A DNA stretch of 64,000 nt from assembly GCA_034435215.1 (NCBI GenBank), contig DAOTXM010000492.1:12611-76610 (forward strand), read 5' to 3'. The translations under genes and the position numbers were made by a program. Shown here piece after piece: positions 2,583-49,320 of this stretch. The DNA comes from Anaerolineales bacterium. GTDB lineage: Bacteria; Chloroflexota; Anaerolineae; Anaerolineales; Villigracilaceae. Position 1 is the first letter of the stretch, and the number at the start of each line of letters is the position of its first letter. The notes beneath the pieces are model-generated. The model was not told the origin of the DNA, did not search any database, and worked only from the letters and a program-made list of their open reading frames with translations.

Positions 2583-2668
2583 CGTATGACCCTAAAGGTT
2601 TCGCCCCCCCACTCCGTTCGGGGATGCTGCGCAAAACCTTTAGGGTCTGTACCGTGAAGGAGGCAAAA

Positions 2669-2908: not shown

Positions 2909-2909
2909 G

Positions 2910-6733: not shown

Positions 6734-6734
6734 G

Positions 6735-8159: not shown

Positions 8160-8168
8160 AGAGGTAAT

Positions 8169-8247: not shown

Positions 8248-8260
8248 ATAAGTAAACGAT

Positions 8261-8899: not shown

Positions 8900-8917
8900 C
8901 CAAAGTTGGAGGTAAAA

Positions 8918-9175: not shown

Positions 9176-9216
9176 TGCAAACACTATCGCCTCGCAAAAC
9201 GTAATGGTGCCACCTG

Positions 9217-10636
9217 TGTAAAGTCTCATAAATTCGTACCTTAACAGTCTCATAAAATCATACCCCCGCCAAAGGGATCAGGAGTGGCAACTGGAAGGCT
9301 TGCGGAGCAGGCAGTTCTGCAACGGTGTAGCCCAGAATGTCTTCTTTGCTCAATCCACGGGTCGGGAGAGACTGGATTATTTCTCCTTGCTGGGTGCGGA
9401 AGCAAAAGCAGCGCCTTTCTGGCTCAAATTAAGCCGAAATGACTTGTCCGGCATATTTGGCACCCACCGTGTAATAGTGGCCTAATACTGAGACACGTCC
9501 GTTTTTGCTGACTTGCCGTATGGCAATATACCGGCTAACGAAGCGATAGGCGCGTTCCAGGTCGAAGAGCAGCCATTCTTGGCTTGGATCAAAGGGGCGT
9601 CCGCTGCTACGGGCGAAAGGGTAAACCTGCAAAGGCGGCTTACCATGGCAGTGGGCAGCTTGGGACGGATAAGTCTGGTTATAAAACGCGCGCGTTTCAT
9701 CGAGCGTATGTTGCAGGCTCGCCAGGGCTGAGAAGGTCTGGCCTTTGCAAGCCAGGTCAAAGATGGTGCGGTGCTCACGCTCCACTGCGCCCTGGTCGGT
9801 TGGACGTGCCGGACGACTGGTGATGTGTTGAATGCCCAATCCCGCCAGCCAGATGGTAAAGAGCGATGGGTAGTTTTCGTCACTTGACCCGACATACACC
9901 GTTTCATGGTCAGTCTGGATCTCTTCCGGCAACCCCCACTCGCAAAAGGCTTCTCGCAAGGTTGCTTGGACCTCCTGCAAAGTGATTTTTCGCCAACGTT
10001 TTGTGGTGGTGGTGAGAAAGGCTTTCGAGCCAATCATCAACCCAAGCGGGTCACGCACATTGAGCAGGTTGACCTTTTCGCGGGACATCACTGACAACCC
10101 TTCCTGGGCATCCATCTGCCACCGCTGATGAGGTCGAATGACAACGGGCGGCGGCTTTTCCGGGTACGTGCGCTTGTTGCGCTCCTGAACCGCTTGCGGA
10201 CAGCGTTCTTTGAAAAGCACTGCCAGGCGCGAGCAACTGGGAAGTTCTTCGAGCGGCTTCCCCAACTTCTTGGCCAGTTTCAGCCGAACCGTCACCGCTC
10301 CCCAGCCCGGATGCTCTTGTTTCATCTTCACGGCTTCTTCCACAATCTCCGCCGCATAGCTGCTAAGCGTTCCGCTGCAAGGGCGACCGCGAGGCTTTGC
10401 TGCCTGATTGTCGCGCTGGCGTCGCCAGTGCTTGCGCACTGTGTAAATCGAGCAATGCATTTCTGCTGCAATCGCTTTCAGCATCCAACCTTCTTGTTTG
10501 TACTGCACGATTCTTTCTTGTTCCGCCACTGTCAATGGGCGCCAAGGAATTGCCATACCTCCTCCAATTTCGACTTTTGCATGGAGTAGAGGTACGATTT
10601 TATGAGATTGTAAAGGTACGAACTAGAGATTCTACA
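9217..10636 (-). mobile_element. IS481-like insertion sequence (single rve/DDE transposase)
   Basis: Imperfect terminal inverted repeats of about 47 bp: TGTAAAGTCTCATAAATTCGTACCTTAACAGTCTCATAAAATCATACC at 9217 versus the reverse complement of 10590..10636, TGTAGAATCTCTAGTTCGTACCTTTACAATCTCATAAAATCGTACC. Flanked by the direct repeat ACCTG (9212..9216 and 10637..10641). Confidence 0.9.
9429..10556 (-). CDS. IS transposase (N-terminal HTH plus integrase-core rve domain)
   Basis: 375 aa with an N-terminal HTH (CSIYTVRKHWRRQR) and DDE core signatures WQMDAQEG, IQTDHETVY and PTDQGAVEREHRTIFD. Confidence 0.93.
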   Translation of the reverse strand: MAIPWRPLTVAEQERIVQYKQEGWMLKAIAAEMHCSIYTVRKHWRRQRDNQAAKPRGRPCSGTLSSYAAEIVEEAVKMKQEHPGWGAVTVRLKLAKKLGKPLEELPSCSRLAVLFKERCPQAVQERNKRTYPEKPPPVVIRPHQRWQMDAQEGLSVMSREKVNLLNVRDPLGLMIGSKAFLTTTTKRWRKITLQEVQATLREAFCEWGLPEEIQTDHETVYVGSSDENYPSLFTIWLAGLGIQHITSRPARPTDQGAVEREHRTIFDLACKGQTFSALASLQHTLDETRAFYNQTYPSQAAHCHGKPPLQVYPFARSSGRPFDPSQEWLLFDLERAYRFVSRYIAIRQVSKNGRVSVLGHYYTVGAKYAGQVISA

Positions 10637-14974: not shown

Positions 14975-17900
14975 TTATCGAACTGCCTCGACAGGCACAA
15001 AATCACTCGCCGGACACACTAGCGCGCCAATCTTGGCGGCCATCTGGACATCGGTGTAATGAAGTAACTGAATGGCGCGCGCCGGGCATTCCGCCGCGCA
15101 TACGCCGCAACCCTGGCAGACAGAAGGCTCAATGAAGGCCGCGCCCAGGATATTGCCTACACCAGGCTGGTTTGGCTGGATTTGCGGCACTTGGAAAGGG
15201 CAAATGCGGACACAGGTGAGGCAGCCAGTGCAAAGCTGTTGATCGACCACCGCCACCTGCCCACCCGCGGCCTGCGTGCTGCGACTGAGCACGCGCGCCG
15301 CCCGAGCCGCGGCCGCCTGCGCCTGGATCATGCTCTCATCCAGCAGTTTGGGGTAATGGGCAAAACCAGCCATGAAGATGCCATCCGTAGCAAAGTCAAC
15401 CGGGCGGAGCTTGACATGCGCCTCAAGGAAAAATCCATTCGCGTCGACAGGCACTTTGAACATGGCGGATAGATCGTACACATCCTTGTTTGGCACAATT
15501 GGCATGGATAGCGCCAGCAGGTCGGGATGCAGGATCAAGTCGCGATGCAGTACAGGTTCCCAAACCTTGACACTGATCACTGGCAATTGACCACTGATCA
15601 CTGATGACTGATCGCTGTCCACTGTCACTTCCGGCTTCCTGTCGAAGTCATAGCGGACGAAGGTTACGCCCATAGCGCGCGCCTGGGTGTAGAGCCGCTC
15701 TTTGAAACCATAGGCGCGAATATCGCGATACAGGATGGTGACCTGCATCCCCGGATTCAATTCTTTCAACCGAATGGCGTTCTTCAGCGCCACGGTGCAG
15801 CAGATACGGCTGCAGAACTGTTCGGCGGGGCCAACACACAGGATCATGACTACGGAATTGAGTTCCTGCACACTGGTTTCATCCGTAAGATGCGCTTCAA
15901 GTTCTTGCTGAGTGATAATTCGTGGGTTGGTTCCGTAGCCGTATTCCGGCTGGCGATATTCTTGAGCGCCGGTTGCCAGAATAGTTGCGCCATGCACGAT
16001 CTCAAGTTGCTCACCTGTACCGTTTCTAATCACGCTGGTAAAGTTTCCTTTGAAACCATGCGTCTCGGTCACCCGGCTGTTCAAATGGACGGTAATTTTG
16101 GGGTGGGAATTGATCTGCTCAACCAGTTGTCGAAGCACTTTTTGAGGCTCTCTGCCGTTCAACGGGACATACACATTCCGTAAATTCCCGCCCAACTTGC
16201 TTTCCTTCTCCACCAAGTGAACCGGGAAACCCTGATCGGCTAGCGAGAGCGCAGCGGTCATCCCGGCAGCGCCGCCACCAACCACCAGCGCAACCTGTCG
16301 CACAGGGATTTCGATAGTGTAAATCGGATTTAACAACGCCGCGCGCGAGACAGCCATCCGCACCAGGTCTTTCGCTTTAGCAGTGGCAGCTTCCCGATCC
16401 GTGGAATGAACCCAGGAGCACTGGTTGCGGATGTTCGCCATCTCGAACAGGTAAGGATTCAGTCCCGCCGTTCGCAGACTGTCCCGGAATAACGGTTCAT
16501 GCGTGTGAGGCGTGCAACTTGCCACTACTACGCGGTTGAGCTGATGTTCATTCACCTGTTCGATGATGTGACGGATACTGTCCTGGGAGCAGGTGTATAG
16601 ATTGGATTCAGCATGGACAACATAAGGCAAGGTGGCAGCGTACTCGCTAACAACCGGCACATCCAGGTATCCGGCGATGTTCGAGCCACAATGACAGACG
16701 AACACGCCAATGCGGGGCGGCTCGCCATTGACGTCCCGTTCAGGCGGGAATTCAGGGGTGGTAGTCAGCGTAAAACGGGACCCACTCAAATGTCCGGCCG
16801 CGGCGGCCGCTGCTCCGCTGGCTTCGACAATCGATTCGGGGATGTCCTTGGGCTCGCAGAACGGTCCAACAGCGTAGATTCCCAGGCGGCTGGTTTCCAC
16901 AGGATTGAACTGCGCGGTACGGCAAAAACCATGTTCGTCCAGTTCAACGCCCAAGCGCTGGCCCAGGGCGCGCACATCCGGTGAGATTTCCATACCAACC
17001 GAAAGGACGACCATATCAAAGCGCTTGAAGAATGCTTTTCCATTCTCATCCTGATAGCGCAGGAGCAAATCGCGACTCTCAGGGTCTTCGTGCAAGGCGC
17101 TGATTCGGCAGCGGGTATAGGTGATACCATATCGCTGGCGCGCCCGCTCGTAATACTCCAGGTAGCCTTTGGAGAAAGCGCGCATGTCCATCATGAAAAC
17201 CTGGATATCCAGGTTCGGATGATGTTCCTTGGCCATGATAGCTTCCTTGGTAGCATACATACAGCAGACAGCAGAACAATAATCATGGCTCTGATCACGC
17301 GAACCGATGCACTGCAAGAACGCGATGCGCTTGGGAGTGCTGTCATCCGATGGACGCTGAATATGTCCCATTGTCGGGCCGGAAGCCGATAGCAAGCGTT
17401 CGAATTGCAGCGAAGTCACCACGTTTGGATAGCGTCCAAAGCCATATTCCTGCGAGAGTTCAGCGCGATAGATTTCGTATCCGGGCGCTAAAATGACGGC
17501 TCCCACATCCAGGCTTTGTTCGCGAGCAGGCATATCATGATCGATTGCATTCACCCCACAGGCAAAGACGCAACTCATACATTCAGAACAAATGCCGCAC
17601 GCCAGGCAGCGAGCTGCTTCAGCTTGCGCGCTTTCATCGTCGTAGCCACCCTCGACTTCGGCAAAATTCGAGATGCGTTCTTCGACCGTCAGTTCAGGCA
17701 TGGGTACGCGCGGCTGGAGCTTGATCTCACCGCGGGCGATGCGATCTTCGATTTCCTGTTGGGAGAGTTTGACCACCGGAAGTTCAGGCTTGGGCGGCGG
17801 TTCGAGTGCAGCGCCTCGCAGATAGCGAAGGATGGATTTAGCCGCCTTGTGACCGCTATCCACGGCCTCGATGACGAAAGCCGTACCGGAAACACTATCG

Positions 17901-19546
17901 CCCGCTGCATAAACACCCGGACGGGTGGCAGCGAAGGTATTGGGATTGATGGCAATGGTTTTCGTCGCCGTCAGGCCTACACCGGCATCTTCGGGGATAA
18001 AGGCCAAACCTGCGCGCTGGCCAACCGAAAAGATGACCGTATCACACTCGATGATGTGGTTGGAGTCCGGGACTTTCTCGACCTCCAGGCGGCCAACCTC
18101 GTCGAAGCGGAACGAGCTGACCTGCATGCACTCCACACCCCGCGCTCGACCGTTCCCGTTGCCATGAATCTGTTCAAAGGAACGACTGTTGTAGATTGTG
18201 ATCCCCTCTTCTTGCGCGGCTTCGATCTCCCATGCGTGGGCGGGCATTTCTTCCCGACCTTCCAGGCAGGCCATAGAAACCTGGCAGCCCAGGCGCACGG
18301 CGGAACGGGCTACGTCAATGGCGACGTTGCCACCGCCTAGTACCAGCACGCGCGGGCCAAAGGGTTTTCCATCCGGTGTGCCAATAGAATCATTTTCATC
18401 TCGTTCGTAGCGACCCAAACGCATGTCTCGCAGGAAGTGGGTGTTGATCAACACGCCATCCAAGTTGGCGCCAGGGATTGGCAGGCGCACACCCTCATGC
18501 GCACCAACGGCGATCAACACCGCCGAAAAGCCTTCTTCAAAGAGGTCGTCCAGATTGGATACGGGCGAATTCAAGCGCAATTCCACGCCGAGATCGATGA
18601 TGTCCTGGACTTCGCGCTCGATAATCTCGGCCGGCAGACGGAACTCGGGCACCCCCAGGCGCAGCATCCCACCTGCGACCGGCATCGCCTCGAAAATAGT
18701 GACAGGATACCCATCCCGGATGATATCCTGCGCAGCAGTCAATCCACATGGCCCTGCGCCAATGATGGCTACCCTTTTATCGGGATATTTGATTTCCACA
18801 GGTTTGACCGGCTGGCGCGGCTCGGCGTAGACCTTATCGGTCACGAAGCGTTTCAGGGCGTGGATATTGATCGGTTCATCGACCAAGCCACGGTTGCAAG
18901 CTATCTCGCAGCGATGATTGCAGATGCGTCCGCAAATGCCGGGAAAGGGGTTGTCCATTTTGATGACGCGCAAAGCATCTGCCCAGCGTCCTTCCCTGAT
19001 CAGGGCAATGTACCCCTGGGCGCGCTGTCCTGCCGGACAGGCATCGCGGCAGGGGGCAATGCCGCGCTTCTGGATCGCAAACGCATTTGGTGTGGCTTGC
19101 GGATACTGCTTATAGATAGCATGCCGTTTGGATAATCCCTCATTGAAAAGATCCGGCACAATAACCGGACATACATCAATGCAGTCCCCACAGGCAACAC
19201 ATTTATCTGCGATGACATATCGAGGATTGTGTAGCATGCGCGCGGTAAAATTCCCTACCTGCCCCTGCACATCCAGCACCTCGGTATTGGCCATGATTTC
19301 GATGTTAGGATGTCTGGCTACTTCAACCAGTTTTGGGGAAATTGTGCACATGGCACAATCATTGGTTGGGAAAGTCTTATCGAGCTGGGCCATCTTACCT
19401 CCGATGGCCGACTGCTTTTCCACCAGATAAACCTTAAAGCCCTGATCGGCCAGATCCAGCGCGGCCTGCATCCCCGCAATGCCCCCTCCCACCACCATCA
19501 CTGCTCCAGTGGACTGATTTTCAGGATCATTTACGACCTTGGCCAT
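14975..19546 (-). CDS. hdrL: HdrL-like giant flavoprotein: HdrA with an inserted GltD/NfnB-like NAD(P)H module, an MvhD-like domain and a second HdrA-like unit
   Basis: 1523 aa. HdrA N-terminus (VVGGGIAGMQAALDLA, FPTNDCAMCTISPK). GltD-like segment (GICGRICNHRCEIAC, RVAIIGAGPCGLTAA, VLGGGNVAIDVAR, YAAGD). HdrA core (LQCIGSRD..YCSAVCCMYATKEA). MvhD-like insert (GVFVCHCGSNIAGY). Second FAD unit (VVGGGAAGMTAAL) and terminal 2x[4Fe-4S] motifs. Confidence 0.88.
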   Translation of the reverse strand: MAKVVNDPENQSTGAVMVVGGGIAGMQAALDLADQGFKVYLVEKQSAIGGKMAQLDKTFPTNDCAMCTISPKLVEVARHPNIEIMANTEVLDVQGQVGNFTARMLHNPRYVIADKCVACGDCIDVCPVIVPDLFNEGLSKRHAIYKQYPQATPNAFAIQKRGIAPCRDACPAGQRAQGYIALIREGRWADALRVIKMDNPFPGICGRICNHRCEIACNRGLVDEPINIHALKRFVTDKVYAEPRQPVKPVEIKYPDKRVAIIGAGPCGLTAAQDIIRDGYPVTIFEAMPVAGGMLRLGVPEFRLPAEIIEREVQDIIDLGVELRLNSPVSNLDDLFEEGFSAVLIAVGAHEGVRLPIPGANLDGVLINTHFLRDMRLGRYERDENDSIGTPDGKPFGPRVLVLGGGNVAIDVARSAVRLGCQVSMACLEGREEMPAHAWEIEAAQEEGITIYNSRSFEQIHGNGNGRARGVECMQVSSFRFDEVGRLEVEKVPDSNHIIECDTVIFSVGQRAGLAFIPEDAGVGLTATKTIAINPNTFAATRPGVYAAGDSVSGTAFVIEAVDSGHKAAKSILRYLRGAALEPPPKPELPVVKLSQQEIEDRIARGEIKLQPRVPMPELTVEERISNFAEVEGGYDDESAQAEAARCLACGICSECMSCVFACGVNAIDHDMPAREQSLDVGAVILAPGYEIYRAELSQEYGFGRYPNVVTSLQFERLLSASGPTMGHIQRPSDDSTPKRIAFLQCIGSRDQSHDYCSAVCCMYATKEAIMAKEHHPNLDIQVFMMDMRAFSKGYLEYYERARQRYGITYTRCRISALHEDPESRDLLLRYQDENGKAFFKRFDMVVLSVGMEISPDVRALGQRLGVELDEHGFCRTAQFNPVETSRLGIYAVGPFCEPKDIPESIVEASGAAAAAAGHLSGSRFTLTTTPEFPPERDVNGEPPRIGVFVCHCGSNIAGYLDVPVVSEYAATLPYVVHAESNLYTCSQDSIRHIIEQVNEHQLNRVVVASCTPHTHEPLFRDSLRTAGLNPYLFEMANIRNQCSWVHSTDREAATAKAKDLVRMAVSRAALLNPIYTIEIPVRQVALVVGGGAAGMTAALSLADQGFPVHLVEKESKLGGNLRNVYVPLNGREPQKVLRQLVEQINSHPKITVHLNSRVTETHGFKGNFTSVIRNGTGEQLEIVHGATILATGAQEYRQPEYGYGTNPRIITQQELEAHLTDETSVQELNSVVMILCVGPAEQFCSRICCTVALKNAIRLKELNPGMQVTILYRDIRAYGFKERLYTQARAMGVTFVRYDFDRKPEVTVDSDQSSVISGQLPVISVKVWEPVLHRDLILHPDLLALSMPIVPNKDVYDLSAMFKVPVDANGFFLEAHVKLRPVDFATDGIFMAGFAHYPKLLDESMIQAQAAAARAARVLSRSTQAAGGQVAVVDQQLCTGCLTCVRICPFQVPQIQPNQPGVGNILGAAFIEPSVCQGCGVCAAECPARAIQLLHYTDVQMAAKIGALVCPASDFVPVEAVR

Positions 19547-19569
19547 CTTACTACCTTTCGCTATCTACT

Positions 19570-19700
19570 GTCATTGCGAGCGTTCCTTCCTGACACTGAC
19601 CGTCAGGACGGTGTGCGAAGCAATCCTATTTTCAAGTAATTCACGGATAATTTTGGGCCACGAGATTGCTTCGTCGAGAAGTACGCCTCCTCACAATGAC
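19570..19700. repeat. Palindromic intergenic repeat, copy b
   Basis: GTCATTGCGAG..CGAAGCAATCC...GAGATTGCTTCG..CCTCACAATGAC between the hdrL start and the mvhD stop. Confidence 0.8.
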
Positions 19701-19713
19701 ATAAATGCGCATG

Positions 19714-20211
19714 TTATTTGCGTCTGCCGCGAAATTTGTTCTCCTCTTCTTCGATTTCTTTTTCAGGGACCTTAGCCGCCTCCTTCCAGACCTTTAACGG
19801 GTTCGGCCCTAATTGGCGGATTCGTTCCGTCATGGTTTGGGCGGCCATCGCAAAGGCTTGTCCCTGGCTACCGGACATAAAGAACATATCCAGACGCTCT
19901 TTACCCAAACCAATTTCATCTAATAATTTCTGTGCCCGTTGAATTCTGGCCAGTCCGCGCTCATTGCCGCGTACATGATGGCAATTTCCAATCGGGCAGG
20001 CAACCTCGTAGACGCCGTCCGCCCCTTGTTCGAAAGCCTCTAAAATGTAGCGGATGTCCGTTTTCCCGGTGCAGGGTAGACGGATAAATTTAACGTTGGC
20101 TGGATATTGAATGTACAGTGCGCCAGCCGTGTCAGCCGCCATATATCCGCAGTATACGCAGTAGAAGGCGGTGATCTCAGGTTCAAAGGGTGGAGCTGGA
20201 TTATCCTTCAT
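19714..20211 (-). CDS. mvhD: MvhD-like [2Fe-2S] subunit (Cys form)
   Basis: 165 aa with ITAFYCVYCGYMAADTAG, LPCTGK and ACPIGNCHH. ATGA overlap with the upstream hdrA. Confidence 0.9.
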   Translation of the reverse strand: MKDNPAPPFEPEITAFYCVYCGYMAADTAGALYIQYPANVKFIRLPCTGKTDIRYILEAFEQGADGVYEVACPIGNCHHVRGNERGLARIQRAQKLLDEIGLGKERLDMFFMSGSQGQAFAMAAQTMTERIRQLGPNPLKVWKEAAKVPEKEIEEEENKFRGRRK

Positions 20212-23200
20212 CGCAATATCTCATACCCTTTTCCTGGCAACCAGCTTCCCAATCCGGCAACGTTGCGGAGCATGATCTGGCTGTCGGTGAAATTGACAAG
20301 CTGTATCGCATTGGCAGGGCATTCGCCGGTACAGGTTCCACATCCTTGGCACTGGGCCGAATCAATATAAGCTGCTCCACCCAGTTTTCCGACCCCATAT
20401 CGACCTTCTTCCTGAATGACCTGTGGAATGCCAAAAGGACAGGTGCGAGTGCAAGTCAGGCAACCGACACACTTTTCAGGGTCGACCTGGGCAACTACCC
20501 CGCCCAGGTAAAGCGATTCCCAGGCCAACAGGGTTATCGCACGTGCAGAGGCGGCTAAAGCGTGACTGATACTCTCTTCGATGAACTTAGGATAGTGCGC
20601 CATGCCTGCCAGGAAGATACCCTCACGCATGAAATCCATTGGGCGCAGTTTCAACTGCGCCTCGCTGAAGAACCCTTCACTGGACAGGGGAACGCGCAAC
20701 ATTTGGGCAAGCTCTCTTGTGCCTTCAGATGGTGCAATGGACATACTCAGGGGGATAATATCCGCTGGAAGCAACAGCCAACGATCCAGTGACACATCCA
20801 GCACTTTTACTTCCAGATGGTCCTGAACCCAATTGATTTGGGGAGGATTCTCATCGGTATAACGAACAAAGATCACCCCACGTTGACGAGCTTCTGTATA
20901 GTGCTCTTCGCGAAAACCATACGTAACGATGTTTTTATACAGCACGCTAACCTGACAGTTTGGATTCATCAACTTGATACGAATGGCATTTTTCAATGTG
21001 GCAGTACAACATACTCGCGAGCAATAGTCTGCTTCACCCGGGGGATGCACACATTGGATCATCACCACATTCTTTAAGGCCGCAATTTGCTCAGGATGAT
21101 GAATAACTGTCTCCTCCAACTTTCTCTGCGTAATCACATTGGGGAGATCCAGCCAAGGATGTTTCTGGGTCTCCTGGCCACCGGTCGCAACGATGGTCAC
21201 ACCGTGATCGAAGGCTGTTCTCACAACAGTCCCATCCTGCTGCCGAGTGGTAATCTCAGTCTGGAAATAACCCACATGGCCGGTATGCTTTACCACCTCG
21301 GTACGCGTAAAGACATTGATCCGTTGATGCGAACGGACGCGATTGACCAGATCGCGCAACAGGCGTTGCGGGTTGAAACCTGCAGCAACGTAGTAAATAT
21401 TTAGAAGGTTCCCCCCTAACATTTCAGATTGTTCTACCAAGTTGACGCTGAAACCACTATCTGCAATGGCTAGTGCAGCAGTCAGTCCTGCTACACCTCC
21501 TCCAATGACCAATGCATTTGACCTGCAACGATGCTTCTTTTTGTACACCGGCTGTGCCAAAGCAACTCGGCCCACCGCGATACGGATCGATTCCAGGGCT
21601 TTACGCTGGGCCAAGTCTCGCTGCCACTGGTGGACTCTCCCACATTGCTCGCGCAAATTGACCAATTCTAATAGATAAGGATTCAAACCTGCATGTCTAA
21701 CAGTACGTTGGAAGAGTGATTCATGTGTTCGACTGCTACACGCTGCAATGACGATCCGGTTGATGTTTTCAGTTTGAATCTTTCCTCGGATGTACTCCAG
21801 AGATTCAGGGACACAGGCGAACTCAAGCACCTCGCTTGATACTACACCATCCCATTTGGCCACCTGATTTGCCAGGTCCTTGGTATCCAAGTTTTCACCC
21901 AGGGTATCTTTACAAGAACAGACAAAAACACCCGTGCGCAGAGGCTGATCAGAAACATCCTTTTCGGGGGGTAAACCGTCCACTGATAGGAAAGGCCATT
22001 GACGGGTATAAACATTTGAACACAAACGGTCATTGAGCAATCGCATGACCTCTGCAGCGGCACCGCTGGCGTCAATAACAGTTTCAACAATTTCCTTCGG
22101 TGAAGAAAATGCTCCGCAGACAAATACTCCTGGATGGGTAGTTTGCAAAGGGGTGAATTTTTCCGTCCGGCAGAATCCATATTCGTTCAGTTCGATGTTG
22201 AAACTCTTAGAAAGCTGGGCAGCCGAACTTGGAGGAAGCACTCCGGTTGCCAAAACAACCATTCCATATCGTTGTTGTTTAAGCGGCCCATTGGGATCGG
22301 CATAATTTACGATAACATCATGACTATCCGGGTCTTCTTGAAGTGAAGAGACTCGACAGCGACTGTAATGAATGTTGTACTGGTTCCGTGCCCTTGAAAA
22401 ATATTTGTGGTACTCTTTGTTGAACGCTCGTTCATCCATGATGAAAATCTGGCATTCAATTTCTTCTCCCAAACGCTGCTTGGCCAGGATCGCTTCTTTG
22501 GTGGCATACATGCAACAAATCGATGAGCAATAGGAGTATTCCGGGCTGCGTGAACCTATGCATTGCAACCAGGCGATCGATCGAGGACGTTGACCATCTG
22601 AAGGGCGCACCAAAATTCCTTCCGTCGGACCCGAACGACTGGCAAGCCGTTCGTATTGCATGGCATGTAGTACGTTCGGATATCGCCCATAACCATATTC
22701 TTCCAACTTGGATGGGTCAAAACTCTGAAAGCCTACAGCAAGGACAATAGCGCCAACCTCAACCGAGAGCAATCGCGCTTGTTGATCCAAGTCAATAGCC
22801 CCGGTTGGACATATTTCCGCGCATTTTTTACAATCAGGCTGGCATTGATTACGGTCGATCACGTAAGCATCTGGCATAGCCCGCGCAGCGACTTTATAAG
22901 CCGCCTTGCGAATACTTAATCCCTGTTGGTATTCATCTGCAAGCTCAACCGGACAAACTTGGGAGCAATACCCACAGTTTATACAGCGCGCCGGATCAAC
23001 GAAACGTGGTTCTTGACGCAGTGAAACAGTAAAGTCTCCAGCCTGGCCTTCCGCATCAATAACCAGCGTATTGGTTAAGATCTCAATATTAGGATGCAAG
23101 TTGTGTTGAATATAAGCCGGGGAGATAGAGGGACGGGTACATCCGTAGCCGTGGTCTGATGTGCCTCTACAAAGAACGCAATCATGTTGGGGGAACATAA

Positions 23201-23366
23201 AACCGAGCTGTGCGACTCGCCCACCCAAACAGGGGGTTTGCTCGACCAAATACACTTTCAGGCCAGCATCCGCAAGGTCAAGGGCAGCACGCATTCCTCC
23301 AATGCCGCCACCTACGACCAAAACCATCGGTCTGGCTTGAATGTTTGGAGAGTTTGGAGCATACAT
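20208..23366 (-). CDS. hdrA: Tandem HdrA-like flavoprotein (two HdrA units joined by an MvhD-like domain)
   Basis: 1052 aa with VVGGGIGGMRAALDLA, CINCGYCSQVCP, LQCIGSRS..YCSSICCMYATKEA, GVFVCSCKDTLGE, a second VIGGGVAGLTAALA, and terminal CVGCLTCTRTCP / CQGCGTCTGECP. Confidence 0.88.
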   Translation of the reverse strand: MYAPNSPNIQARPMVLVVGGGIGGMRAALDLADAGLKVYLVEQTPCLGGRVAQLGFMFPQHDCVLCRGTSDHGYGCTRPSISPAYIQHNLHPNIEILTNTLVIDAEGQAGDFTVSLRQEPRFVDPARCINCGYCSQVCPVELADEYQQGLSIRKAAYKVAARAMPDAYVIDRNQCQPDCKKCAEICPTGAIDLDQQARLLSVEVGAIVLAVGFQSFDPSKLEEYGYGRYPNVLHAMQYERLASRSGPTEGILVRPSDGQRPRSIAWLQCIGSRSPEYSYCSSICCMYATKEAILAKQRLGEEIECQIFIMDERAFNKEYHKYFSRARNQYNIHYSRCRVSSLQEDPDSHDVIVNYADPNGPLKQQRYGMVVLATGVLPPSSAAQLSKSFNIELNEYGFCRTEKFTPLQTTHPGVFVCGAFSSPKEIVETVIDASGAAAEVMRLLNDRLCSNVYTRQWPFLSVDGLPPEKDVSDQPLRTGVFVCSCKDTLGENLDTKDLANQVAKWDGVVSSEVLEFACVPESLEYIRGKIQTENINRIVIAACSSRTHESLFQRTVRHAGLNPYLLELVNLREQCGRVHQWQRDLAQRKALESIRIAVGRVALAQPVYKKKHRCRSNALVIGGGVAGLTAALAIADSGFSVNLVEQSEMLGGNLLNIYYVAAGFNPQRLLRDLVNRVRSHQRINVFTRTEVVKHTGHVGYFQTEITTRQQDGTVVRTAFDHGVTIVATGGQETQKHPWLDLPNVITQRKLEETVIHHPEQIAALKNVVMIQCVHPPGEADYCSRVCCTATLKNAIRIKLMNPNCQVSVLYKNIVTYGFREEHYTEARQRGVIFVRYTDENPPQINWVQDHLEVKVLDVSLDRWLLLPADIIPLSMSIAPSEGTRELAQMLRVPLSSEGFFSEAQLKLRPMDFMREGIFLAGMAHYPKFIEESISHALAASARAITLLAWESLYLGGVVAQVDPEKCVGCLTCTRTCPFGIPQVIQEEGRYGVGKLGGAAYIDSAQCQGCGTCTGECPANAIQLVNFTDSQIMLRNVAGLGSWLPGKGYEILR

Positions 23367-41121: not shown

Positions 41122-43521
41122 CTACTTGTTCACCCAGAATCCCAGGTGGTTAGAGACAGCCGATTCGTTTCCGGGGATATTGCCTTCGATGGGTGAGTTC
41201 AACACGAACGGTCCTCCCAACGCCCCTTCGATGACCATGGCGGAAGAACCACCGCCATCCAGGTTGATTCCAGTGTAAGCGCCCAGCGAGATCAGGAAAT
41301 CGGCCATGTCCGGGAAGGTCGCGCCTTCGCTATAACCCGGCTGGCGTCCGTCGATCACCACCAGGAACAGCCAGCGTCCATTCTGGTTGAGCCCGGCCGC
41401 TGTGCGCGGCTCGACAGATTGGCTTTCTAGATTGGCAATTCGTTTGCCCTTATCCACCAGCATCCGGTCGCCGGAAACAGCATTGTAAATGGCACCCAGT
41501 GGTGTGTTGAAAGAGACCTCATTATTCTTATTGATATACATGATTGGCCTGCCCTCCCATTGCTGGGAGTACACCGTACCGCGGGAGGCTGCATAGCTGT
41601 TGACCTTGACAGGTTCGCCGCCATTGGGACAATACTGCTGTGGGTTATACGTATCCTGGTCGAGATACTTGAAGCCATCGCCATTGACCGCCACTTGCAA
41701 GCCGAAGTCCTGTAAGAATTTGGAAGTTTTGCGCGTGCAAATCAAACCGCTGGCATGGCTGGGTGGCGTCACCAGGCATTTCAGGCCGGTGGTACGCATA
41801 TCGATTGCCAGAACGTGGGCGACCATTCTGCGTGGCGTCTTCATCTCCTTCCGGAAATACGTGACGCCAGTAAAAATCCTTTGCGTCAATTGTTCAGGCG
41901 CTGTGGTTCCCAAGTCAGTCAGATAGGAAACAGCACACCAACCCACCAAGCCGTCGAAGCGTTGGACGCGGACCCAGCTCCCGTCCTCGTTGGATTCCAG
42001 CGCCACGACAATCTGGCCCTGCGCCAGGGAACCAACCTTGTTGCTGGAAGTGCTCGGCCCCTCGCGCACGTTCAAGGTCGCGACCTTGACCTGGTACCAG
42101 TTTTTCGGAGGGGTGACGGGGGGAGGCGGTTCCCCGCCACCAGGTGGCGGCGTGGGAGCAGTCGTCAACACCAGGTAGCTGGCAAAACACCAGCCGGTCA
42201 GCCCGTCCGATTCGCGGCGAATTTTGATCCAACTCCCGTCGCTGTTCTTTTCGAGCGCCTTGACAACCTCATTGAAAGCCAATGAGCCGATCTTGGCCTC
42301 GCTTGTGCTGGGACCCTGGCGAACGTTCAAAACCGAGGCTGTGACGCGATACCATTCCACCACGCTGGGCGGTTCCCCTGTATCGGGTGGCGCGGTCGTC
42401 TCTTGCAGGTAAGCGGCATAACACCAGCCAGTCAGCCCGTCTGAGGGCCGATAGATTTTGATCCAACTGTTGGCGACAGCGAATTCGAGCGCCTTGACCA
42501 CTTCACCTTGCGCCAGGGTCCCAACATTATCGTAGCTCGTGCTGGGACCAGAACGCACGTTCAAGGCAGTCGTGGTAACGCGGTACCATTTTGGTTCCGT
42601 GGTGGGTGGTTCCTCCGTATCCGGCGGTGTGGGGCTTTCGATTTTTATCAGGTGTGTCTTGTATATCCAGCCAGTCGTTCCATCAGTCCTTTTGACCTGC
42701 ATCCAGCTTTCATCGACGGTCGTATCGAGCAGTTCCAGGACTTCATCCTGCTGTAACGCACCAATCACGGTTTCGTCCACGCCCGGGCTGGTGCGTATGC
42801 TCAACTCGACACGGTATTTCCCTTCTACCTGACCGCCACCCGGAGGCGGTTCACCGGGTTCGGCAATCCCAAAACGTTGACGGAAGGCTACTGCATCGCC
42901 GTTGAAGTAATTTAAGTCGATGCCCTTGCTTTCCACACCATAGAGCTTGCCATCGCCAACTTCCGTGAACTGCCAGAACAACCATTCCTTCGGCCCCCAC
43001 GGTTTGGGGATGCTGGGTTCCGCCACGCCGTAGTTGGCAATCCACAAGGGATATTGGTGGAAATATTCCAAGCTCTGGGCTTCACTGGTCGCATTGGGAG
43101 CATTGTCCCGCCAGTAATAGAAGGCGGTATAAATCGCAATTTCCTTCTTGTCGACCAGCTGCTTGAGCCGCTCCAGAAAATCGTACCAGCTACGCCAACC
43201 CTTGTACGTGCCTCCATAAGCATCCTCGAAATCTGCAAACAGCGGCAATTCCCCCAAATCCCCATTCAACAAATCGACCCACAGTTCGGCCTGTCGTTTG
43301 GGGTCGGCGCGGCTGTCATAGAACCAATAGGTGCCACGCGGGAGTCCAGCATCCTTGGCCGCAACCCAATTATGCTTGAAATCCCTGTCGGGCCACAGGT
43401 TCTGTCCGGCGCGGATAATGACAAAATCCGCGGCCTTTTTCATTTTAGCAAAATCAATACGCTCCGGAGTCGTCGGTTCGTCTTGATAAAAACTTATATC
43501 AGGACCGATTGCATTTCCCAT
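41122..43521 (-). CDS. GH25 muramidase - 4x SH3b - phosphodiester glycosidase (NAGPA-like) multidomain protein
   Basis: 799 aa. N-terminal GPDISFYQ...FVIIRAG...GTYWFY (GH25). Four about-70-aa repeats (W/K)Y(R/Q)V...LNVR.GPSTS...G.L....V.ALE....SW.K(I/V).R.DG.TGW with Pro-rich linkers. C-terminal AVNGDGF...INLDGGGSSAMV (phosphodiester glycosidase family). No N-terminal signal peptide visible. Confidence 0.8.
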   Translation of the reverse strand: MGNAIGPDISFYQDEPTTPERIDFAKMKKAADFVIIRAGQNLWPDRDFKHNWVAAKDAGLPRGTYWFYDSRADPKRQAELWVDLLNGDLGELPLFADFEDAYGGTYKGWRSWYDFLERLKQLVDKKEIAIYTAFYYWRDNAPNATSEAQSLEYFHQYPLWIANYGVAEPSIPKPWGPKEWLFWQFTEVGDGKLYGVESKGIDLNYFNGDAVAFRQRFGIAEPGEPPPGGGQVEGKYRVELSIRTSPGVDETVIGALQQDEVLELLDTTVDESWMQVKRTDGTTGWIYKTHLIKIESPTPPDTEEPPTTEPKWYRVTTTALNVRSGPSTSYDNVGTLAQGEVVKALEFAVANSWIKIYRPSDGLTGWCYAAYLQETTAPPDTGEPPSVVEWYRVTASVLNVRQGPSTSEAKIGSLAFNEVVKALEKNSDGSWIKIRRESDGLTGWCFASYLVLTTAPTPPPGGGEPPPPVTPPKNWYQVKVATLNVREGPSTSSNKVGSLAQGQIVVALESNEDGSWVRVQRFDGLVGWCAVSYLTDLGTTAPEQLTQRIFTGVTYFRKEMKTPRRMVAHVLAIDMRTTGLKCLVTPPSHASGLICTRKTSKFLQDFGLQVAVNGDGFKYLDQDTYNPQQYCPNGGEPVKVNSYAASRGTVYSQQWEGRPIMYINKNNEVSFNTPLGAIYNAVSGDRMLVDKGKRIANLESQSVEPRTAAGLNQNGRWLFLVVIDGRQPGYSEGATFPDMADFLISLGAYTGINLDGGGSSAMVIEGALGGPFVLNSPIEGNIPGNESAVSNHLGFWVNK

Positions 43522-45078: not shown

Positions 45079-45108
45079 TTGACTAAAGAACATTTGTTCT
45101 AATATAAT
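45079..45108 (+). promoter_or_regulatory. Near-consensus sigma-70 promoter with embedded LexA-type SOS box
   Basis: TTGACT (45079..45084) - 18 nt - TATAAT (45103..45108). The spacer contains AGAAC-ATTT-GTTCT (45087..45100), a perfect GAAC-N4-GTTC palindrome. ATG of the next gene is at 45116. Confidence 0.7.
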
Positions 45109-45115
45109 TCTAAAC

Positions 45116-45538
45116 ATGTTCCTGCTCCCATCCCGCCTGCGCAAGCTCCTGCAAAGGGCCAAGGGGTCGGATTCGCGCACCTTCAGCGCGGACCAGGAGT
45201 TGTTGGCCGCCATTCAAGAAGCTGCGCAAGCACAGGGCCGCAGCGAAGAAGAAATCTGGATGGACTTTGCCAGGGCCGGCCGGGAACAGTACCGGCAGAG
45301 TGGCGCGCTGGAAGCCCGCTGGGATTCGCTCTCGGAACGCGAGCAGGAGGTCACGGCACTGGCCTGCATGGGGTACAGGAACTACGAAATCGCCAAAACC
45401 CTGGGCATCTCCCACGAAACGGTCAAGACTCATTTGCAGAATGTCTTCATCAAATTCGATATCCACAGCCGCAAGGAACTGCGCCTGGCGCTCAGGGATT
45501 GGCGCTTCGATGAGTGGTGGGAGGATCGCAGCCCATAA
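45116..45538 (+). CDS. LuxR/GerE-type HTH regulator
   Basis: 140 aa. C-terminal LSEREQEVTALACMGYRNYEIAKTLGISHETVKTHLQNVFIKFDIHSRKEL is a canonical GerE HTH. N-terminal 70 aa not recognised. Confidence 0.85.
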   Translation: MFLLPSRLRKLLQRAKGSDSRTFSADQELLAAIQEAAQAQGRSEEEIWMDFARAGREQYRQSGALEARWDSLSEREQEVTALACMGYRNYEIAKTLGISHETVKTHLQNVFIKFDIHSRKELRLALRDWRFDEWWEDRSP

Positions 45539-45612
45539 GCAGCTATAGGGGGTGAAATTGCTCCGCCCCCACCCCTGCCTCCCCCAACGGCCTACCCCGA
45601 AAATCCCCCGCA

Positions 45613-45639
45613 CAATCCCCTGGCAGGGGATTGTTTTTT
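45613..45639 (+). terminator. Intrinsic terminator after the LuxR-type gene
   Basis: CAATCCCC-tggca-GGGGATTG followed by TTTTTT. Confidence 0.8.
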
Positions 45640-45665
45640 CATGCGTCCAACTTTATGCTGAGAAT

Positions 45666-46193
45666 ATGAACAAATTTTCTATATTACAACCCGGTCGTTG
45701 GACGCTGGCCCCTTTGCCGCGACATGAGCAACGGGAACAGGTGCTGGCTTGCATCGCAACCCTGGCGCTGGAAGGACCGGTCCTAGTTCTGGACGGCGGC
45801 GTGCTTTTCAATGTCTACAGGGTCGTGATGGCAGCCCACGGCCAGACGCGCCTCCTGAACCGCATCCGCTTCGCGCGCGCCTTCACCTGTTACCAGATAG
45901 TCGCCCTGCTCGAGCGTACGCCCGCCGAAGAGTTTTTCGTAGTCATTCTGGATTTGCTGGCGACTTTCCAGGATGAGAACGTACCCGCGGGCGAGCGCCT
46001 GCGCCTGTTGAAAACCTGCCTGCCGCACTTAACCCGCTTGAGCCGCCCACGCGGAGCGCTGGTTAGCGTGGGGCCGATTGCCAACATGCCGCCTGAATCC
46101 CGACCCCTGTTCCAGCTTCTTGAACGGGAAGCCGCGCAAGTGGTTGGATGGCAAACGCCCGCGCTCCCCGAGGGGCCTGCCAGACTCTTTTGA
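45666..46193 (+). CDS. RecA/Rad51-fold protein lacking a Walker A loop (ImuA/SulA-like)
   Basis: 175 aa from ATG 45666. VLVLDGGVLFNVYRV, RIRFARAFTCYQIVALLE and FFVVILDLLATFQDE...ERLRLLKTCLPHLTRLSR parallel RecA/Rad51 strands and the Walker B region, but no GxxxxGK(T/S) is present. Confidence 0.55.
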   Translation: MNKFSILQPGRWTLAPLPRHEQREQVLACIATLALEGPVLVLDGGVLFNVYRVVMAAHGQTRLLNRIRFARAFTCYQIVALLERTPAEEFFVVILDLLATFQDENVPAGERLRLLKTCLPHLTRLSRPRGALVSVGPIANMPPESRPLFQLLEREAAQVVGWQTPALPEGPARLF

Positions 46194-46194: not shown

Positions 46195-46461
46195 ATGGGC
46201 CGCAATCTTCCCTCCATCACACAGGTCTTCCAGGAAGACAAAGAGTATCTTGTCCGCTTCCGCCGCCTGCTGCCCCGGCACGAGCACTGGATCATCGACG
46301 AGCTGCTGGCTTTCGCCCACCGGCACATCCCCGCGGTTGCTTATGCCGGGCATCCCCTGCCGTTCGTCATGTTCCTGCTGGCCATGCTGGTCGAACAACA
46401 CAAGCAACTCAAACGGCTGGAAGACGCGCTACATGCCATAAAAGAAGGGCGAAATGGGTGA
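46195..46461 (+). CDS. Hypothetical 88-aa protein, translationally coupled on both sides
   Basis: ATG lies 1 nt after the upstream TGA. Its stop overlaps the PolB start by 8 nt. No recognisable motif. Confidence 0.5.
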   Translation: MGRNLPSITQVFQEDKEYLVRFRRLLPRHEHWIIDELLAFAHRHIPAVAYAGHPLPFVMFLLAMLVEQHKQLKRLEDALHAIKEGRNG

Positions 46462-48787
46462 TTACACCGGCTGGCTGCTGGACCTGTACACCCATCCGCG
46501 TGACGGCCTGGTGCTCTGGCTGCTGTGCGACGACACCCGCCGGCGCCGCTTCCGGCAGGATTTCCCGGTCACGTTCTACGCCGCCGGCCCCGACCAGCGC
46601 CTGCGCGCGCTGTGGAAATTTCTGCGCGACCAGCCTGTGCAGGTCGAACTCTCCCGCGAAGAGCGGCGGGACTTGTTCTGCGGTCCGGTCACAGTGCTGG
46701 CGGCGCGCGTCCGGAATCCGCACCAACAGCCTGGCCTGTTCTGGCAGGTTGCGCGCCGGTTCCCGGATTTGAACTTTTACAACGCCGATATCCCCATCCA
46801 TCTGCACCATGCCGCGGCCTATGGCACCTTCCCGCTGGCGCGCTGCCGTACGCAAACAGACGGGCAGGGGAACATCGTTCACGTCGAAATGCTGGACTCG
46901 CCCTGGAAGCTGCACTCCCGCCCACCGCCGTTGCGCACTCTGACGGTCGAACCCGATGCCGATCCCTTCCACGCTTCGCCCAGGCGCCTGGTCCTGCGTA
47001 CCGCGCTCGGGCATTTTTCCATCCCCCTGGAACCCCGCGCGGACCTGCTGCGGACGTTACAGGAACGCCTCCTGCGCTACGACCCTGATCTGCTGTTGAC
47101 TGCCTGGGGTGACACCTGGCTGCTGCCAAAGTTATTGGAATGGGCCGAACAGCATAAAATGCGCCTGCCTCTCAACCGCGAACTGGGCGCAGGCGTGGTC
47201 CGGCGCGCCGAGCGCTCCTATTTTGCCTACGGGCAGGTTATCTATCGGGGACAGCAGGTCAAGCTGTTTGGGCGCTACCATATCGATATCCACAACGCAG
47301 TCATGTACCGCGATTACGGCCTGGACGGCATTTGGGAACTGGCGCGCGTCACCTCCCTGCCTGTGCAAACCGTGGCGCGTGTCTCACCGGGGACGGGCAT
47401 CTCCGCCATGCAGATTGTCACCGCCTTGCGGGAGAACATCCTCGTTCCCTGGCACAAGCAGGAACCAGAAGCGCTGCGCTCCGCGGCCGGGCAGTCCCGC
47501 ACGGACCTGGGCGGCCTGGTTGCCCAGCCGCCGGTCGGCCTGCACCGCGATGTGGCGGAGATCGATTTCATCTCCATGTATCCCAGTATCATGCGCCACT
47601 TCAACATCTCGCCGGAATTGGTGGGGGTGCCGGGCAATGAACCTGGCTTGGTCCCCAAGACGCTGGCGCCCCTGCTGGACAAGCGCGTTGCCCTCAAGCG
47701 GGCTCTCATGACGCTGCCAAAGGACGACCCCAACTACGTGCGCTTCAAGGCCTGTGCTTCCGCGCACAAGTGGCTGCTGGTCACCTGCTTCGGTTACCTG
47801 GGATACAAGAACGCCCGCTTCGGGCGCATCGAGGCGCATGAAGCGGTCACCGCCTTGGGGCGCGAAGTCCTTTTGCAGGCCAAGGAAGTCGCGGAAGGCA
47901 TGGGTTTCACGGTGCTGCATATGTACGTGGACGGCCTTTGGATCAAGAAAGAAGGCTGCAAAACGGTCAAGGACTTCGAGGCTTTGCTGCTCTCGATCCA
48001 CGAGCGGACAGGTCTCCCCATTGCGCTGGATGGCGTCTTCCGCTGGATCGCCTTCCTGCCATCCAGGCAGGATGCGCGCCTCTCGGTCGCCAATCGCTAT
48101 TTCGGTGTCCTCCAGGATGGCTCGACCAAGGAGCGTGGCATCGAACTGCGCCGCCAGGATACGCCGCCCTTCGTGGCGAAGGTACAGAGAAAAATACTGA
48201 ATATCCTGGCGCGGGCGGAGGATGCACGCGATTTGCCCTTTTATCTCCCCGAGATCCGGACGCTCGTGAACGAAGGGTTGGATGCTTTACGGCGCGGGGG
48301 GATTCCTTTGGAAGAACTCATCGTCCGCCAGCGCCTGAGCCGCGAACTGGACGCGTATCGCATGCCTTCGCCCGCCGCCCGCGCCGCCGCGCAATTGAGG
48401 GAAATCGGCAGGAATTTGCGGCCAGGGCAATCGGTGCGTTTGCTGTACATACGCGGTGAACCGAATGTCCGCGCCTGGGATTTGCCCACAGCGCCCGATC
48501 CGGCAGAGATCGACCTGGCCTGTTATCGGAAATTATTGTTAGAAGCGGTACAGGCGATTCTAGAACCGATACAGGAAAGTAAGAATCTTTTCCCTTATCA
48601 AATTCCACTTCCAAACCTGGAGGAGAATCCTTTGGTTGAGTTCCCTAGCGTAGATTTGTCATTGCGAGCCGGTCTTTGGCGAAGCAATCTCCTTGGGATA
48701 AGGGAAACCCCGGCAAAAGGGAGATTGCTTCAGGAAAACCACTCTCGTAATGACACCCTTTTGGTAGATAGCATTAGCGTACGATGA
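46454..48787 (+). CDS. Family-B DNA polymerase, divergent (eroded exonuclease motifs, atypical motif C)
   Basis: 777 aa. Motif A DFISMYPSIM, motif B-like KWLLVTCFGYLGY, motif C position VLHMYVDGLWI, KxY-like ANRYFG, GIELRRQD. The last about 45 aa are encoded by a palindromic repeat (48658..48754). Confidence 0.85.
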   Translation: MGDYTGWLLDLYTHPRDGLVLWLLCDDTRRRRFRQDFPVTFYAAGPDQRLRALWKFLRDQPVQVELSREERRDLFCGPVTVLAARVRNPHQQPGLFWQVARRFPDLNFYNADIPIHLHHAAAYGTFPLARCRTQTDGQGNIVHVEMLDSPWKLHSRPPPLRTLTVEPDADPFHASPRRLVLRTALGHFSIPLEPRADLLRTLQERLLRYDPDLLLTAWGDTWLLPKLLEWAEQHKMRLPLNRELGAGVVRRAERSYFAYGQVIYRGQQVKLFGRYHIDIHNAVMYRDYGLDGIWELARVTSLPVQTVARVSPGTGISAMQIVTALRENILVPWHKQEPEALRSAAGQSRTDLGGLVAQPPVGLHRDVAEIDFISMYPSIMRHFNISPELVGVPGNEPGLVPKTLAPLLDKRVALKRALMTLPKDDPNYVRFKACASAHKWLLVTCFGYLGYKNARFGRIEAHEAVTALGREVLLQAKEVAEGMGFTVLHMYVDGLWIKKEGCKTVKDFEALLLSIHERTGLPIALDGVFRWIAFLPSRQDARLSVANRYFGVLQDGSTKERGIELRRQDTPPFVAKVQRKILNILARAEDARDLPFYLPEIRTLVNEGLDALRRGGIPLEELIVRQRLSRELDAYRMPSPAARAAAQLREIGRNLRPGQSVRLLYIRGEPNVRAWDLPTAPDPAEIDLACYRKLLLEAVQAILEPIQESKNLFPYQIPLPNLEENPLVEFPSVDLSLRAGLWRSNLLGIRETPAKGRLLQENHSRNDTLLVDSISVR
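48658..48754. repeat. Palindromic repeat, copy c (inside the 3' end of the PolB ORF)
   Basis: GTCATTGCGAG..CGAAGCAATCTCC...GGAGATTGCTTC..CTCGTAATGAC. Confidence 0.8.
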
Positions 48788-49320
48788 ACAGCCAGCAAAA
48801 ACCAAACAAGTCCAGGGTTTTCGTCATCCACGGCCGGGATGAAGGGATGCGCCGCGCGCTCTTCGATTTCTTGCGTTCCATCGATTTGAAGCCCATCGAG
48901 TGGAACGAAGCCGTTGCGCTGACCGGAAAACCGTCTCCATTTGTGGGCGAAATCCTGGATGCGGCCATGCAGTATGCACAGGCCATTCTCGTACTCTTTA
49001 CCGGTGACGACCAGGCGCGGCTGAGGGATGAATTCCTGTCGTGCAATGATCCCGCTTATGAAAGGGAGACCACTCCACAGTCCAGGCCGAACGTGATCTT
49101 CGAAGCCGGTCTGGCCTTGGGGAAATATCCTGAGCGCACTATCCTCGTCCAGGTTGGAAATCTCAGACCGTTCAGCGATATTGCCGGCCGGTATCTGATC
49201 CGGCTGAAGAATACTTCCAAGTCCAGGCAGGAGCTGGCGTTGCGCCTGCGACTTGCGGGCTGCGAAGTGGATCTCTCTGGGACAGACTGGCATGATGCCG
49301 GGACGTTTCCGGTGAAATAA
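48784..49320 (+). CDS. TIR-like nucleotide-binding domain protein (COG4271 / CAP12-Pycsar-TIR type)
   Basis: 178 aa with RVFVIHGRDEG...FL...LKPIEW...ILVLFTGDD...RPNVIFEAGLALGKYPERTILV...PFSDIAGRY, matching the pattern of stand-alone bacterial TIR-like proteins. ATGA overlap with the PolB stop. Confidence 0.75.
   Translation: MNSQQKPNKSRVFVIHGRDEGMRRALFDFLRSIDLKPIEWNEAVALTGKPSPFVGEILDAAMQYAQAILVLFTGDDQARLRDEFLSCNDPAYERETTPQSRPNVIFEAGLALGKYPERTILVQVGNLRPFSDIAGRYLIRLKNTSKSRQELALRLRLAGCEVDLSGTDWHDAGTFPVK

Follow-up and report, generated by a model that had tools for sequence, protein, structure and literature searches.

The stretch of DNA analysed here (the window) comprises 64,000 nucleotides of an Anaerolineales bacterium (assembly GCA_034435215.1, contig DAOTXM010000492.1, positions 12,611 to 76,610 of the forward strand). 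The locus of concern within it begins with a gene for a small regulator with a GerE/LuxR-type helix-turn-helix (HTH) domain, whose promoter encloses a palindrome resembling the operators of the SOS repressor LexA. Downstream of the regulator gene follow a C-rich array closed by a hairpin, a second putative promoter and a cassette coding for an inactivated RadA/Rad51 homologue (iRadA), a small partner of the polymerase (PPB2), a PolB2-type family B DNA polymerase and a TIR-like protein (Table 1).

Table 1. Features of the regulator-PolB2 locus, in positions of the window
Feature	Positions	Strand	Basis
-35 hexamer TTGACT, predicted regulator-gene promoter	45079..45084	+	direct reading and promoter scan
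Putative operator AGAACATTTGTTCT of the LexA (Cheo-box) type, within the promoter spacer	45087..45100	strandless	direct reading
-10 hexamer TATAAT, predicted regulator-gene promoter	45103..45108	+	18 nt past the -35
GerE/LuxR-type HTH regulator gene, 140 aa	45116..45538	+	Pfam GerE, homologues, conserved start
C-rich array, TCCCCC-type repeats at about 45565, 45580, 45593, 45603 and 45615	45565..45634	+	conserved in 13 loci upstream of iRadA or the TIR-like gene
Perfect palindrome ACAATCCCCTG-G-CAGGGGATTGT closing the array, followed by a T-run	45612..45634	+	11-bp hairpin
-10-like hexamer TATGCT, predicted PolB2-operon promoter	45654..45659	+	21 nt after GGGGATT, 6 nt before the iRadA ATG
iRadA, inactivated RadA/Rad51 homologue, 175 aa	45666..46193	+	homologues, AlphaFold2, Foldseek
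PPB2, small helical PolB2 partner, 88 aa	46195..46461	+	identity to PF26485/DUF8156 genes
PolB2-type family B DNA polymerase	46454..48787	+	Pfam, motif C
TIR-like gene (CAP12/Pycsar TIR, PF10137)	48784..49320	+	Pfam (E=3e-28), PADLOC PDC-S35

The promoter of the regulator gene, TTGACT-N18-TATAAT, agrees with the consensus at 11 of 12 positions in a promoter scan, and AGAACATTTGTTCT in its spacer displays the GAAC-N4-GTTC palindrome by which the Cheo-box type of LexA operator is recognized. Between the -10 hexamer and the ATG (45116-45118) there are just seven bases, TCTAAAC, which on direct reading are devoid of a Shine-Dalgarno sequence. This layout, with the box inside the spacer and the ATG 8 nt after the -10 hexamer, had been described in the first-pass annotation and is borne out by direct reading and the promoter scan; the accompanying claim that the 64 kb hold no other GAAC-N4-GTTC site was wrong, as such sites occur at 22422, 42551 and 45088, the former two within long open reading frames (ORFs) of the minus strand (20208-23366 and 41122-43521, respectively).

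Since three sites in the window fit expectation, the palindrome might be seen as having arisen by chance in an AT-rich promoter spacer and as having no regulatory role. Its score argues otherwise: the window box reaches 23.6 bits, the best value in the 64 kb, with a matrix whose training sites (16 at the regulator or iRadA genes and 51 at recA) all come from other loci. The next independent match has 13.0 bits, and over 3000 random 60-nt background windows the best scores do not exceed 10.3, with 3.8 as their 99th percentile. The same type of box is also found at recA promoters, and, as detailed below, in all 20 related loci in spite of their diverged flanks. On the grounds of its 23.6-bit score and of its place in a promoter shared by all related loci, the box is judged to be non-random, and the chance explanation is regarded as highly improbable.

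The product of the regulator gene has a C-terminal GerE HTH domain (PF00196, E=1.8e-15, 56.7 bits against a cut-off of 23.5), and its best protein matches come from metagenome-assembled genomes of Anaerolineales and Chloroflexota. A total of 518 homologues were found, with most of the top 120 matches being 138-142 amino acids long, and the N-terminus MFLLPSRLRKLL is common to 28 aligned homologues; judged by this conserved N-terminus and the homologue lengths, ATG 45116 is the true start. The mRNA translated from it is probably leaderless. Searches against Pfam and NCBIfam gave matches to GerE and Sigma70_r4_2 only, with neither a receiver nor an autoinducer-binding domain, and with no domain in the 65-residue N-terminal part. 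The AlphaFold2 model is all-helical with a predicted local distance difference test (pLDDT) score of 77; an N-terminal ribbon-helix-helix may be present, as hinted at by a sequence pattern, but the monomer is predicted, with moderate confidence, to be helical throughout.

The promoter module can be traced across a set of Anaerolineae loci, of which 11 (L001-L011) came from a scan of a genome collection with alignment of the regulator (37-82% identity) and the others (L098, L100-L103, L108-L110) were added by exact-protein look-ups. The box is present in 20/20 related loci, 16 of which have the same -35/box/-10 layout amidst diverged flanks. When these 16, with regulators 37-85% identical, are aligned on the box, CTTGAC, GAAC, GTTCTA and the -10 hexamer are conserved throughout (CTTGAC to at least 90%), and the 15 nt upstream of the -35 hexamer and the middle of the N4 are free to vary: ATTT, ACTT, ACAT, GTTT, AGAT, CTAT, ATAT, AAAT and GCTT are all seen in the latter. 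A single mismatch in the box is encountered in two loci of the 16, namely GAAT in L001 and GTAC in L004. In L108-L110 too the box lies upstream of the regulator gene, with leaders or in a shifted position. Among the relatives in which every perfect site was listed, nearly all perfect GAAC-N4-GTTC sites fall at the regulator promoter. In 14 of the 16 aligned loci the ATG follows the -10 hexamer at a distance of 7-9 nt, which, together with the conserved N-terminus, is consistent with a leaderless mRNA. A different arrangement is seen in L101, a locus without the regulator gene, where TAGAACAAATGTTCTG-CTATAAT-CAGGGC-ATG places the box directly on the iRadA promoter; here the LexA-type box is fused to an extended -10 element (TGCTATAAT, 8933-8964), 6 nt before the iRadA ATG.

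As an observation apart from these promoters, a near-palindrome, AGAACGCACGTTCA, at 42550-42563 in a GH25/SH3/NAGPA gene of the window (41122-43521, minus strand) recurs in the orthologue of this gene in L003 (1887-1902); this recurrence probably reflects coding conservation and not an operator.

The same type of box was sought at recA. A metagenome search with the L005 RecA yielded 80 related recA loci, of which 72 have enough upstream sequence, and in 59 of these 72 Anaerolineae-type recA regions GAAC-N4-GT(G/A/T)C lies within 300 nt upstream. Nearly all boxed recA promoters take the form TTGAC-N5/6-box-TATACT/TATAAT, i.e., the box again occupies the spacer and abuts the -10 hexamer, and over about 700 kb the promoter-plus-box pattern matches almost solely at recA and the regulator gene. 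In L005 and L098 the two even meet: recA is the divergent neighbor of the regulator gene, and each has its own box in back-to-back promoters (L005 2941-3088; L098 7853-8000), that of recA reading TTGACG-AAC-CGAACATCTGTGC-TATACT. The recA operator of the clade (L018-L097, L005 and L098) is almost always asymmetric, GAAC-N4-GTGC, with G at the deviating position in 44 of 51 sites, as compared to the perfect GTTC at the regulator gene, which suggests that the two classes of promoters might respond with graded affinities. A further boxed promoter, TTGACAACTAGAACATTCGTGCTAAAAT, was seen in L049 at 2996, some 640 nt ahead of the recA match and directly before a 151-aa ORF; this ORF looks NUDIX-like by eye, and recA may be co-transcribed with it.

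LexA of Dehalococcoides, itself a member of the Chloroflexi, binds the same GAAC-N4-GTTC motif. In Firmicutes and Actinobacteria, too, experiments have established this motif as that of LexA (PMC3323433; PMC4234289). Thus, the binder of the box is most likely LexA, whose presence is assumed for the window organism, and the recA sites furnish a putative operator model for Anaerolineae. The first-pass annotation had taken the palindrome for a LexA-type operator, had proposed a leaderless transcript and had pointed to lexA, recA and uvrA as places where the same motif should be sought; the comparative data back the first two points and, for recA, the third, with a conserved box in the regulator promoter, the same spacer position in the recA promoters of the relatives, and the short -10-to-ATG distance in most loci supporting the leaderless layout indirectly.

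A box that accompanies the regulator gene family in every locus examined might alternatively be an autoregulatory operator of the GerE protein, or be bound by a further factor other than LexA, with the likeness to LexA sites being coincidental. Palindromes commonly serve small HTH regulators for self-control, and a tblastn search of the window and 97 loci did not find a lexA gene, both of which would sit well with such an explanation. It has to contend, however, with the occurrence of the same box type at the recA promoters of the clade, mostly on contigs without a nearby GerE gene, with the box on the iRadA promoter of L101, which has no adjacent regulator gene, and with the match to an established LexA motif. 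Moreover, the TCCCCC/GGGGATT repeat downstream of the regulator gene, by its likeness to the heptamers bound by NarL, is a better candidate for a GerE site. Autoregulation is accordingly held to be quite unlikely, and it is likely that the box is a functional SOS-type operator acting on the regulator gene.

The iRadA protein has 751 homologues, mostly of 175 amino acids, and its AlphaFold2 model (pLDDT 89) has Rad51, RadA and DMC1 as its top Foldseek matches, with probability 1.00; the position of Walker A reads LDGGVLFN and lacks the GKT. A 213-aa ORF starting from a GTG at 45552 was considered and rejected as the gene, as it crosses the hairpin and the homologues, 175 amino acids long, begin at the position of ATG 45666. 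Only 1 nt separates the PPB2 gene from the iRadA stop, and its end shares 8 nt with the start of PolB2; its product, of the PPB2 family (arCOG07300/PF26485), is below the Pfam threshold itself but shares 52-53% identity (E 2e-22 and 8e-14) with the products of the PF26485/DUF8156-annotated genes of L102 and L103. The polymerase matches PF00136, the polymerase domain, alone, with no exonuclease-domain match, and its motif C, HMYVDGLWI, has YVD instead of DxD. The supplement of PMC11791011 lists a motif of the same kind, HLYVDGIWV, for Chloroflexota PolB2. The start of the TIR-like gene overlaps the PolB2 stop (ATGA), and PADLOC run over the block reported only the TIR-like protein (PDC-S35) and weak HTH matches, with no sign of a known defence system. 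The order iRadA-PPB2-PolB2 is repeated in L098, L100-L103 and L108-L110. On account of this gene order, the Rad51-fold iRadA without Walker A, the YVD polymerase and PPB2, the block is identified as the bacterial PolB2 mutasome operon known from earlier work, to which a TIR-like gene has been added.

The cassette is not a constant companion of the regulator gene. In L001, L002 and L004 iRadA, PPB2 and PolB2 are missing and the TIR-like gene stands directly behind a C-rich array that follows the regulator gene (TIR-like genes at L001 6727-7260, L002 1869-2252 and L004 6620-7141); in L098 it comes after a split polB. This splitting concerns two loci, with two ORFs in L098 (9658-11965) and three overlapping aligned pieces in L009 (7707-9871), and points to frameshifts, either in pseudogenes or from assembly errors. 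In L109 a 1043-aa polymerase gene of the DnaE type (PHP/DNA_pol3_alpha) lies directly downstream of PolB2 on the same strand (6352-9483) and could represent a second damage-related polymerase at the locus. Elsewhere in the window, its first third holds a V-type ATPase operon and two genes for FAD/Fe-S oxidoreductases of 1523 and 1052 amino acids (696-8900 and 14975-23366), which are unrelated to the finding.

Between the regulator gene and iRadA lies a second conserved, putatively regulatory region. The hairpin is placed 74 nt past the regulator stop, and the TCCCCC-type repeats ahead of it are spaced roughly 10-15 nt apart; further downstream, the putative PolB2-operon promoter has its -10-like hexamer but no good -35. 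In an alignment of 13 loci (A3) three TCCCCC blocks are conserved and GGGG.T and the TA...T of the -10 hexamer are invariant, the latter taking the forms TATGCT, TATGAT, TATCCT, TACGCT, TATTCT and TAAGGT. The spacing from GGGGATT to the -10 hexamer is 21 nt in nearly all of them, with one having an extra base, and is the same in L109; the sequence of this spacer has diverged; likewise, the gap of 6 nt from the -10 hexamer to the start is kept in the eight loci whose array directly precedes iRadA. The array is absent in L006, L008 and L011, which are without the cassette, and it tracks the downstream gene and not the regulator, standing before the TIR-like gene where PolB2 is missing. In L001 and L002 about 200 nt, with other hairpins, separate it from the regulator stop, and the TIR-like gene comes right after it. 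The hairpin stem, furthermore, is conserved in sequence, beyond mere pairing ability.

NarL sites are built as 7-2-7 pairs of heptamers of the TACCCCT type. The TCCCCC/GGGGATT repeats, which in L007 read TCCCCCTATAGGGGA, resemble these NarL-type heptamers bound by GerE-family domains. The palindrome is centered at about -43 relative to the predicted start (45666), which at a promoter without a -35 we take to be the geometry expected of an activator of the LuxR/NarL kind. The array and palindrome are accordingly proposed as candidate binding sites of the GerE regulator, and the hairpin may at the same time terminate the regulator transcript. A search of the C-rich region against Rfam gave nothing relevant, the one match being of 18 bits against a threshold of 37 and on the other strand.

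LexA might nonetheless reach the cassette by another route, if all five genes formed one operon read from 45079, with the array and hairpin being a leaky terminator or attenuator and the GerE protein idle at the cassette. The five genes are indeed on one strand and closely packed, the hairpin and T-run resemble an intrinsic terminator, possibly a partial one, and C-rich, G-poor RNA is typical of Rho-loading sites. However, the 21-nt and 6-nt spacings are kept across loci whose regulators are only 37-40% identical, and the spacer sequence is not; a terminator needs no such spacing, nor does it need a stem conserved in sequence as opposed to pairing. The position of the array in L001 and L002, far from the regulator stop and right before the TIR-like gene, also fits poorly with a role in ending or attenuating the regulator transcript. 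Transcriptional read-through as the sole means of control is therefore considered unlikely.

The matrix scan found no conserved LexA-type box at the second promoter. A potential second box, ATGAACAAATTTTCTA, overlying the iRadA start codon (45666-45681), scores 13.0 bits and is above the background maximum of 10.3; it reaches only 6.0 in the closest relative, L003, and is absent elsewhere. It is therefore not counted as conserved and could be either a chance match or a weak additional operator specific to this lineage. The supposition in the first-pass annotation that the cassette comes under damage control by mere adjacency thus does not hold: a hairpin and T-run intervene, and the cassette has a conserved promoter of its own without a conserved LexA box. 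Damage control of the cassette is most likely indirect, via the regulator, and appears to be direct only in L101, from which the regulator gene is missing.

These observations can be assembled into a circuit. Because the operator fills the spacer of a near-consensus sigma-70 promoter and runs up to the -10 hexamer, LexA bound there would exclude RNA polymerase from the regulator promoter. Upon DNA damage, RecA-stimulated self-cleavage of LexA would free this promoter, and a leaderless mRNA starting at or next to ATG 45116 would yield the 140-aa GerE/LuxR-type DNA-binding protein. The proposed targets of this protein, the TCCCCC repeats together with the AATCCCC/GGGGATT palindrome, lie about 500 bp further on, and its binding there would activate the leaderless iRadA-PPB2-PolB2-TIR operon, which encodes the PolB2 translesion mutasome. 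In this chain we infer LexA as the binder, the leaderless state of the mRNAs, the binding of the GerE protein to the array and the sense of its action, i.e., activation and not repression. Taken by itself, the step in which the regulator switches the PolB2 operon has, in our estimate, an even chance of being correct.

Several points weigh against this circuit. The number of GAAC-N4-GTTC sites in the window is not above chance, as 1.04 are expected and the observed three are also reached by 10 of 100 shuffles, and the same is true of AGAACNNNNGTTCT with at most one mismatch (2 seen, 1.38 expected). Leaders are present in L007, L010, L108 and L109, such that the leaderless layout is not universal. 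The recA evidence comes from relatives and not from the genome of the window, and the tblastn search that did not find lexA in the window or the 97 loci used the Escherichia coli and Bacillus subtilis LexA sequences, that of B. subtilis being approximate. At the second promoter, the hairpin and T-run (45612-45640) might also be taken for a plain intrinsic terminator, and Rho could load on the C-rich, G-poor stretch, so that part of its conservation may come from termination and not from regulator binding. Finally, the GerE protein could act as a repressor rather than an activator.

With these points taken into account, a two-tier SOS circuit is proposed tentatively for Anaerolineae, at slightly short of an even chance for the proposal as a whole: LexA would repress the gene of a leaderless activator; the amount of this activator, and not a ligand, would switch on the archaeal-origin PolB2 mutasome and the TIR-like enzyme via the TCCCCC array near -43; and in lineages without the activator the LexA box would be wired directly to the operon.

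Set beside known systems, the locus combines familiar parts in an unfamiliar manner. It shares with the Gram-positive Cheo box (of Bacillus subtilis, Mycobacterium and Clostridium) the core palindrome and its spacing, the overlap with the promoter and the presence of the motif at recA, here of relatives. It differs in that the target here is a GerE-type regulator gene, which is absent as an SOS gene from the literature searched, in the stereotyped module of -35, box, -10 and predicted leaderless ATG in which the box is set, and in the fixed asymmetric GTGC right half of the recA sites of the clade. Relative to the PolB2 mutasome operon (Makarova et al. 2014, PMC4104785; Timinskas et al. 2025, PMC11791011), the same three genes are found, in the only order reported in bacteria, with YVD for DxD and a Rad51-fold iRadA without Walker A; unlike there, no lexA is adjacent, and the LexA-type box lies on the neighboring GerE gene, a second promoter of regulator type is present and a TIR-like gene is appended. 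An SOS link of bacterial PolB2 operons had earlier been inferred from an enrichment of lexA in their neighborhoods (PMC11791011; PMC4104785). GerE is recorded in 131 of 1823 PolB2 neighborhoods in PMC11791011 as a supplementary-table count only, without discussion, and that study contains no operator or promoter analysis. Bellilinea, Ornatilinea apprima, Longilinea arvoryzae, Pelolinea submarina and Brevefilum fermentans are among the Anaerolineae with PolB2 that it names.

Parallels might also be struck with circuits in which one regulator hands control to another. The control of the pyocins of Pseudomonas aeruginosa by PrtR and PrtN is an SOS cascade of this kind, leading from a repressor to an activator. 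The LexA-repressed sigN/zpdN of the Bacillus plasmid pBS32 (PMC6751061) similarly have a damage-sensitive repressor controlling a second transcription factor, which in turn switches on effector genes. What sets the predicted cascade apart from both of these is the nature of its second factor, a GerE-type HTH protein, and of its output, a translesion polymerase complex. The class II activators of the LuxR/NarL type, for their part, have in common with the present case the GerE HTH, the C-rich heptamer-like repeats ending in an inverted pair, the palindrome at about -43 and the want of a -35; the regulator described here differs from them in having neither a receiver nor an autoinducer domain, such that its amount, and not a signal, would be the control point of its predicted binding. 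Taken together, the type of operator, the PolB2 operon and its general SOS link are already known, whereas the GerE regulator as a conserved SOS target, the stereotyped module with its predicted leaderless ATG, the second promoter with its TCCCCC array and the alternative direct and cascade wirings appear to be new in the literature searched.

The bacterial PolB2 mutasome was structurally modelled only in 2025 (PMC11791011), and what is understood of the regulation of bacterial PolB2 has so far rested on one clue from gene neighborhoods, the occasional adjacency of lexA. The present analysis offers a regulatory map for a large uncultured clade, comprising a putative operator, a probable new member of the SOS regulon, a candidate activator array and two predicted leaderless transcripts, and the operator model for Anaerolineae could be used in predicting the rest of the regulon. 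That the same operon seems to be wired directly in one genome and via a cascade in related ones makes it useful for the study of SOS rewiring and of the timing of mutagenic synthesis. Should the proposal be true, a two-tier circuit of this kind would delay or gate error-prone synthesis in these bacteria.

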